Origin: Escherichia coli | Lineage (GTDB): Bacteria; Pseudomonadota; Gammaproteobacteria; Enterobacterales; Enterobacteriaceae | NCBI RefSeq assembly: GCF_030384885.1 | Contig: NZ_CP128613.1 | Reading direction: 5' to 3' (one strand) | DNA: 64,000 bases | Shown here: positions 63,299 through 63,738 of the stretch, piece by piece | Position numbering within the stretch: the first letter of the stretch is position 1 | Layout of the letters: every line of letters starts with the position of its first letter | Translations under genes and position numbers: made by a program | The notes under the pieces: model-generated | The model's input: the letters and a program-made list of their open reading frames with translations, nothing else | What the model was told of the DNA's origin: nothing | Database searches by the model: none

Positions 63299-63738
63299 AT
63301 TCTTTTCCTTAAAATTAACCATGTGAACAATAAGGCTATATATGACCTTAAATTGCGTCCAATATCAAAGGGATTATAACGATATCTCATTAGTTAACCT
63401 ATTGACATTCAGGTGTTTTAAAGGTAGCAGGTCATAGTCTGTTATGTAGTGATGTACCGCAAATTAACTGTAAGTAGAAACGCTTCAGCCCAGGTTTTCA
63501 AGCAAGAAAGATAGCAAGAAGAAAACCAAAGTAGGCTAATCAGGGAGTTAGCATAATAATTTGATTTTGCTGATTAATATCAATTGTGTATAAATAACAA
63601 CGAATCGATAAAAATGAAGAATAAATGACCTGAAGGGGTATTACACATCTAAAACACTGACCGTTTTATTCAAAGTCGGCCAGTGTTTTCGATAAATTAT
63701 TGTGCGACTTTTGCCGTGACAGAATTCTTTTTCTGAAA

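Follow-up and report, generated by a model that had tools for sequence, protein, structure and literature searches.

The closest described relatives of the locus studied here are the yoaB-yoaC gaps of Escherichia coli K-12, EHEC and UPEC. E. coli that has lost yoaC, a small gene of unknown function, is sensitive to boric acid. In K-12 its transcription starts at position 1892041 (NC_000913.2), a start recorded in two datasets with 21 and 4268 reads; the site is bound by sigma70 and sigmaS, and the reported promoter sequence from −50 to +1 ends in ...GAGCTGCTACCTTTAAAACA (PMC3415461, PMC3923258). The sigmaS dependence of K-12 yoaC comes from one ChIP-based dataset only. A weak antisense start at 1891768(−), with 12 reads, is also reported, and its −10 element, TATTAT, overlaps the hairpin that follows yoaB (PMC3415461, PMC3923258). 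By Term-seq, an RNA 3′ end was mapped in K-12 at 1893787(+) in three datasets, and a Rho-dependent region was reported near 1894019(+), near the start of yoaC, with a modest score (3.15; 800-nt windows) (PMC7815308).

Two regulators of the LysR type have been placed upstream of yoaC. One of them, YhaJ, responds to quinol and dinitrotoluene metabolites. Its ChIP-seq peaks in the yoaB-yoaC gap are centred upstream of yoaC at a distance of 305 bp in EHEC, where the peak is in the fourth row of the EHEC table, and of 283 bp in UPEC, and the box proposed for it reads TTATAGATAAAATTGA (PMC6765310). The other, YeiE, studied by ChIP-exo in K-12, binds upstream of the RNA polymerase site of yoaC and acts as an activator (PMC6237786). 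As a listed YhaJ target with a strong ChIP-seq peak, yoaC resembles the YhaJ-activated promoters yqjF, ybiJ, yhhW and yhaK. However, those promoters carry a clear dyad, for example TCAAATTTTTTGAAGA, whereas at yoaC no more than one half-site is good, and its distance from the start site, about 180 bp upstream, greatly exceeds the peak-to-gene distances listed for yqjF and yhaJ.

Here we analyse the corresponding gap in a stretch of 64,000 nucleotides, hereafter the window, filed under E. coli. It shares with K-12, EHEC and UPEC the flanking genes, their orientation, the extended −10 element of yoaC, the predicted start and the position of the hairpin; a 17-mer at the promoter is identical and the 116-nt leader is 88-97% identical. 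It differs in that the gap measures 440 bp instead of 421 bp, the distal part is only about 58% identical, and the published YhaJ box, present as TCAATTTTATCTATAA, is not retained as such. We conclude that the gap probably consists of regulatory and transcript-end DNA belonging to both flanking genes, with no gene of its own. Each of its elements matches something already recorded for E. coli in genome-scale datasets, and this is already known biology.

The yoaB-yoaC gap and its lineage

yoaC (DUF1889, PF08986; 99 codons) occupies positions 62999-63298 of the minus strand, with its ATG at 63298. The 3′ part of yoaB, coding for a RidA/YjgF-family protein, is located on the same strand at 63739-64000, with the stop codon at 63739-63741, and runs off the end of the window. 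This yoaB is identical to that of NZ_CP027579.1, and its protein is 98% identical to K-12 YoaB. The original prediction had described a 440-bp AT-rich spacer without a called gene between two co-oriented minus-strand genes, and every part of that description holds: the gap extends from 63299 to 63738, exactly 440 bp, both flanking genes lie on the minus strand, G and C make up 33.4% of it compared with 50.0% of the window, and no feature is annotated in it, either in an identical RefSeq genome or in K-12 MG1655. Windows of 440 bp that are equally AT-rich make up only 0.5% and are confined to three spots in the 64 kb. According to the annotation of the identical genome, one of the other two spots (about 48660-49400) falls between yebO and yobF, upstream of yobF and of the downstream gene annotated as cspE, and the other (about 51340-52060) between mntP and yobD.

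The stretch is matched at 99% or more by three of the 5,426 complete 'E. coli' genomes; in the remaining ones identity is about 72% over the gap and about 88% over the flanks. The YoaC protein shares 99% identity with those of Escherichia whittamii and Escherichia sp. E1V33. Because of these few matches and of the near identity of YoaC with that of E. whittamii, the window is, as judged from its sequence, cryptic-clade Escherichia (E. whittamii-like) filed under E. coli. The RefSeq label is E. coli (e.g. strain 2013C-4282), yet identity to typical E. coli is about 88% when positions 62900-64000 are compared. Since the lineage is divergent, the evidence from K-12, EHEC and UPEC was transferred by alignment: the anatomy of the gap, its pattern of conservation, the covariation of the hairpin and the identity of the promoter sequence are observed here, and experiments in those strains supply the position of the transcription start, the sigma factors in use, the RNA 3′ end and the occupancy by regulators. 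We infer that these data would apply unchanged to the divergent lineage, an extension that is longest for the diverged distal part, in which the strains that supplied the data are only about 58-72% identical to the window.

On the other side of yoaC, between it and yoaH, lies a pentapeptide-repeat gene of 150 codons (62457-62909, plus strand). K-12 lacks it, and of the 5,426 complete E. coli genomes only three carry it. Its counterparts in E. whittamii and Escherichia sp. E1V33 are 86-92% identical, and short fragments are found in two other Escherichia lineages (L005 and L006). A stem-loop at 62938-62970, with T-runs on both sides, separates this gene from yoaC. It probably terminates transcription in both directions; the K-12 Term-seq data contain 3′ ends between yoaC and yoaH on either strand (1894498 + and 1894457 −).

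Alignment of seven Escherichia alleles divides the gap into two parts of very different conservation. The 132 bp proximal to yoaC (63299-63430) are 92-95% identical across the genus, and a block of about 95 nt within them is kept across Enterobacteriaceae. For the distal 220 bp (63431-63650) mean identity within the genus is 66%, and the window shares 58% with K-12. In E. fergusonii and Escherichia sp. MOD1-EC7003 the gap measures only 261 and 271 bp, respectively, and the AT-rich distal part is absent. These short alleles (L074, 1240-1500, for E. fergusonii; L005, 2730-3000, for MOD1-EC7003) retain the hairpin and the proximal block, and lack the AT-rich middle and the TGcTACCTT promoter described below. 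The long allele is retained in E. coli, E. albertii and the cryptic clades.

The promoter and predicted start site of yoaC

The extended −10 element of yoaC, TGcTACCTT (TGCTACCTT), is located at 63421-63429 on the minus strand and is identical to that of K-12. Promoters served by sigma70 or sigmaS were judged by T at −12, A at −11 and T at −7, with an extended TG offsetting an absent −35 element and C at −13 favouring sigmaS. All of these are found at 63429-63421: TG at −15/−14, C at −13, T at −12, A at −11 and T at −7, in a sequence with no recognisable −35 element. The promoter has these positions in common with other extended −10 promoters of sigmaS and sigma70, both of which are found at the K-12 site, and departs from them in the middle of the hexamer, which is non-consensus (TACCTT versus TATAAT or TATACT).

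The 17-mer CTGCTACCTTTAAAACA, at 63430-63414, is the same as the end of the K-12 sequence reported from −50 to +1, and is conserved in six of the seven aligned Escherichia alleles. Because the 17-mer is unchanged and the alignment from it to the ATG is free of gaps, transcription of yoaC is predicted to start at 63414 (minus strand), 116 nt upstream of the ATG, the position being transferred from the K-12 maps. The transfer can be considered safe, since the segment is 97% identical to K-12. The K-12 start-site maps (PMC3415461, PMC3923258), a kind of data that the original prediction had proposed as a check, yield a match for yoaC, and they contain no sense-strand start between yoaB and the hairpin. 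The suggestion that the gap could hold the yoaC promoter and regulatory sites is supported by the K-12 start of yoaC, the extended −10 element and the YhaJ and YeiE ChIP data; the hairpin is no part of yoaC and marks the 3′ end of the yoaB message.

A scan of the gap for consensus promoters and terminators remained at chance level, with two promoter-like hits against 2.8 expected, and missed both the extended −10 promoter and the hairpin. A perfect TATAAT at 63373-63378 (minus strand), which precedes the ATG of yoaC by 75-80 nt, is shared by nearly all Escherichia alleles; E. whittamii has GATAAT. No start following it is reported in the K-12 start-site tables (PMC3415461, PMC3923258). This hexamer may be a second, condition-specific promoter, and together with the ancestral TTGATA/CATATA pair described below it could provide further promoters that the K-12 maps do not report. 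In the short alleles TGcTACCTT is missing, and therefore yoaC must there use another start.

The distal upstream region

The AT-rich region upstream of the promoter (63431-63650) is the orthologue of the E. coli segment on which the YhaJ ChIP-seq peak lies. In K-12 the complement of the proposed YhaJ box (TCAATTTTATCTATAA) is found at −294, beneath the centre of the peak. The region has no homologue outside Escherichia, and no second copy of it was found in the window or elsewhere in E. coli genomes. We built a YhaJ weight matrix from 11 published sites, the box being defined as T-N11-A with the dyad TCA-N7-TGA. The best score was 6.4 in the window and 6.2 in K-12; in shuffled sequence the best hit averaged 8.6. 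Candidates that weakly resemble a LysR box are located at 63580-63595 (ATTTATACACAATTGA) and 63561-63576. As the box scores no better than shuffled sequence in K-12 or in the window, retention of the YhaJ site here is uncertain. By analogy with the orthologous DNA, the distal region of the window would be occupied by YhaJ and YeiE, and being AT-rich it would also be prone to binding by H-NS. yoaC is absent from the Salmonella ChIP-exo tables.

The strongest alternative concerns this region. In the present lineage the distal 220 bp might serve no specific function: they could be AT-rich filler that dates from the insertion of yoaC, now drifts and is subject to non-specific silencing, and the sites that YhaJ and YeiE have in E. 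coli would then have been lost. Identity to K-12 falls here to 58%, and even to E. whittamii and E1V33 it is 86-91% although YoaC is 99% identical; E. fergusonii and MOD1-EC7003 manage without the distal segment; and no motif rises above chance. However, the orthologous DNA of EHEC and UPEC is clearly bound by YhaJ though its motif is equally weak, and E. coli, E. albertii and the cryptic clades have kept the long allele. We regard loss of function as a doubtful explanation, one nevertheless to be taken seriously, and favour the reading of the distal segment as an upstream regulatory region of yoaC.

The leader of yoaC and the block that accompanies the gene

The 116-nt leader (63299-63414, minus strand) shows no significant RNA structure, with fold z-scores of −0.74 in the window and +0.20 in K-12. 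RNAalifold found no consensus pair in 32 leader sequences taken from across the genera, which argues against a riboswitch or another structured leader. Its last part, at 63299-63393, is the block of about 95 nt that accompanies yoaC across Enterobacteriaceae, as seen in alignments of about 70 loci (those outside Escherichia being L008-L072 and L077, at about 2905-3000). The block contains TTGATA (63363-63368), separated by 18 nt from CATATA (63339-63344), the Escherichia form of a hexamer that reads CATAGT in other genera, and the nearly invariant TGGTTAATTTTAAGGA with the Shine-Dalgarno sequence AAGGA (63306-63310), all of them on the minus strand. In other genera it consists of CyCTTTGATAT, about 15 nt, GGTCCATAGTATA, about 10 nt, and TTACrTGGTTAATTTTAAGGAtAAGAnnATG. 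Across more than 15 genera, conservation amounts to 0.83 from −45 to −1 and to 0.60 from −95 to −46, compared with 0.61 at third codon positions of yoaC.

The block is kept in spite of changes in what surrounds the gene. yoaC adjoins yoaB only in Escherichia, and at the 65 loci outside Escherichia neither yoaB nor yoaH occurs less than 3 kb away from it. In K. pneumoniae, yoaH comes immediately after yoaB, the orthologue of yoaC being located elsewhere, and in Salmonella yoaC lies downstream of a diol-dehydratase-reactivase fragment. The contexts of yoaC in Citrobacter, Klebsiella, Kluyvera, Buttiauxella, Salmonella and others are unrelated to one another, and the block is always present. In the other genera, TTGATA-18-CATAGT could plausibly serve as a sigma70 promoter, which would give a leader of about 40 nt; in Escherichia the hexamer is CATATA, and the start mapped in K-12 lies further upstream. 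An interpretation of the block as a sigma32-type promoter (TTGAAA, about 15 nt, gtCCATag), suggested by the consensus only, was dropped in favour of TTGATA-18-CATAGT.

An ATG in frame with yoaC at 63322, eight codons upstream, gives a 107-residue protein (MVNFKEKN...) in some annotations. Other genera have GTG, GCG, AGG or AGA at this codon. Since the ATG is not kept there, the start of yoaC at 63298 stands, and the stretch from 63322 to 63299 (minus strand) is probably leader and not coding.

The plain reading of the leader is that of an open, AU-rich ribosome-binding region of a well-expressed gene. An additional role of the block, chiefly of its last 45 nt and of the 20-bp imperfect palindrome TAAGGTCATATATAGCCTTA (63331-63350, symmetric at 16 of 20 positions, within the leader), has to be weighed against it: the block might be an operator for a DNA-binding regulator, or a docking site at which a small RNA or an RNA-binding protein controls translation of yoaC. 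Such a role would add to the main explanation, not replace it. The conservation from −45 to −1, well above the synonymous level in more than 15 genera and in unrelated upstream contexts, the near invariance of TGGTTAATTTTAAGGA and the palindrome itself speak for it. But efficient translation of a message calls for just such an unstructured AU-rich region with a good Shine-Dalgarno sequence, and expression of yoaC in K-12 is strong, with 4268 start-site reads; no covarying structure is present, the palindrome is confined to Escherichia, and the literature that we found links no regulator or small RNA to the block. Even within the genus, where most alleles have the palindrome, it is broken in MOD1-EC7003, and other genera read GGTCCATAGTATAAAC in its place. 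We consider the additional role unlikely. Rather improbable, too, is the more specific proposal that the block, and most of all its unstructured 45-nt leader, is devoted to control and works with a partner, be it a small RNA, an RNA-binding protein or a DNA-binding regulator, the old −10 having been rebuilt in Escherichia as a palindromic operator. We retain the interpretation as a ribosome-binding region.

The hairpin at the end of yoaB

The imperfect hairpin that the original prediction had noticed around 63655-63690 is real. It forms a stem-loop at 63651-63689 (minus strand), in which AAAACACUGGCCG pairs with CGGUCAGUGUUUU across a 13-nt loop to give a stem of 13 bp; the arms can be drawn out to 63647-63663 and 63677-63693, and a core stem of nine pairs lies at 63655-63685. 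The free energy of the RNA is −22 kcal/mol (z = −5.4), and none of 200 shuffled sequences folds as well. In the nine-pair core, 95.8% of the cells are paired across eight distinct Escherichia sequences, and three of the nine pairs show compensatory changes (G-C to A-U, C-G to U-A and C-G to U-A). When the partner columns were slid by one to three positions as a control, pairing fell to 12-42%.

The RNA 3′ end mapped in K-12 at 1893787(+) is located 14 nt past the orthologous stem and 76 nt past the yoaB stop codon. Because of this position the hairpin is assigned to the end of the yoaB message, and it is not an element of yoaC; the corresponding end in the window is expected about 5-15 nt downstream of the stem, at roughly 63641-63650. 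With its G+C-containing 13-bp stem, its compensatory changes and an RNA 3′ end mapped just downstream in K-12, the structure is like other 3′ untranslated regions that end in a stem-loop. It is unlike them in its U-tract: the sequence after the stem, UUUUAGAUG, contains four U (UUUU) in the window, and the U-run is missing in K-12, E. albertii and E. fergusonii. The rule of the terminator scan, at least five T in eight, is not reached, which is why that simple scan missed the hairpin. The hairpin is thus no textbook intrinsic terminator: four U follow its stem in the window and none in K-12, so that the 3′ end mapped there may have arisen by processing and be protected by the hairpin. The hairpin either terminates transcription weakly or protects a 3′ end made otherwise; it may block 3′ exonucleases once Rho-dependent or read-through termination has taken place, as opposed to acting as a classical terminator.

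The stability and covariation of the hairpin raise the question of a small RNA, which the original prediction had also envisaged; it could derive from the 3′ untranslated region of yoaB and end at the hairpin, or be antisense and start beside it. K-12 Term-seq labels the 3′ end after the hairpin as 'orphan' (PMC7815308), and the promoter of the K-12 antisense start at 1891768(−), with its 12 reads, overlaps the hairpin. Nevertheless, 'orphan' is the authors' classification, and the end is collinear with yoaB, whose stop codon it follows by 76 nt; the K-12 sets report no sense-strand start between the yoaB stop and the hairpin (PMC3415461, PMC3923258); and the U-tail of the Hfq-dependent type is lacking. 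Moreover, the antisense −10, TATTAT in K-12, reads TGTTTT in the window, where the key A is gone and, on this substitution, the antisense promoter is probably inactive. The sole Rfam match in the gap, IS128, scores 14.5 bits against a threshold of 80 bits (E = 7.4, under a permissive E-value) and is noise. The promoter-like hits of the scan do not exceed expectation, the leader has no conserved RNA structure, the distal gap is conserved at only 58-66%, and a search of the literature gave nothing tying a small RNA, Hfq or CsrA to yoaC. An independent small RNA is thus very improbable, and the hairpin is best understood as the end of the yoaB message.

Open reading frames in the gap

The original prediction had found no open reading frame of note, a fair description: the frames of the gap span 21-34 codons, and none is conserved on either strand among the seven Escherichia alleles. 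The candidates considered were a 34-codon leader frame (minus strand; ATG at 63390, ending 10 nt into yoaC), a 31-codon antisense frame (plus strand, 63342-63437) and a hydrophobic frame of 33-51 codons. That any of them is a small protein, as had also been suggested, or a regulatory upstream frame is hardly credible: the leader frame is open in the window, in three close relatives and in K-12 (there with a GTG start), the antisense frame has AAGG upstream of its ATG, and a gene caller places a 51-codon gene at the corresponding position of a related contig (L075/L076), but each candidate is truncated or startless in at least two Escherichia lineages and in other genera, the leader frame being shortened by a 1-nt deletion in E. 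albertii, startless in MOD1-EC7003, interrupted by stop codons in other genera despite the conserved DNA block and devoid of a real Shine-Dalgarno sequence, the antisense frame being truncated in E. albertii and K-12, and the hydrophobic frame having ATA instead of ATG in the window, only 10 codons in K-12 and residues that AT-rich codons yield by composition, and K-12 RefSeq annotates no small protein in the gap.

Proposed anatomy and significance

Taking the elements in the order of transcription, we propose the following anatomy for the gap. The yoaB message would continue about 50-90 nt past its stop codon and end at the 13-bp stem-loop at 63651-63689. About 220 bp of fast-evolving AT-rich DNA would then act as the upstream regulatory region of yoaC, bound by YhaJ, as in vivo in E. 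coli, and by YeiE. RNA polymerase with sigma70 or sigmaS would start yoaC at 63414 from the extended −10 element TGcTACCTT without a −35 element, producing an unstructured leader of 116 nt with a ribosome-binding region at its end that is AU-rich and strongly conserved. About 95 nt at the end of this leader would correspond to the ancestral promoter and leader of yoaC, still seen as TTGATA, 18 nt and CATAGT in other genera, and the ancestral block would have arrived together with yoaC when the gene was placed between yoaB and yoaH in Escherichia.

The gap can now be labelled with a 3′ hairpin of yoaB, a promoter and start site of yoaC and a 116-nt leader, and it drops off the list of candidate loci for small RNAs or small proteins; beyond annotation its significance is small. 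At yoaC, a strong YhaJ ChIP target is found without a convincing YhaJ box and in DNA that evolves quickly, which fits the strain-specific binding reported for YhaJ. Between genera, yoaC changes its genomic context together with its own promoter and leader.
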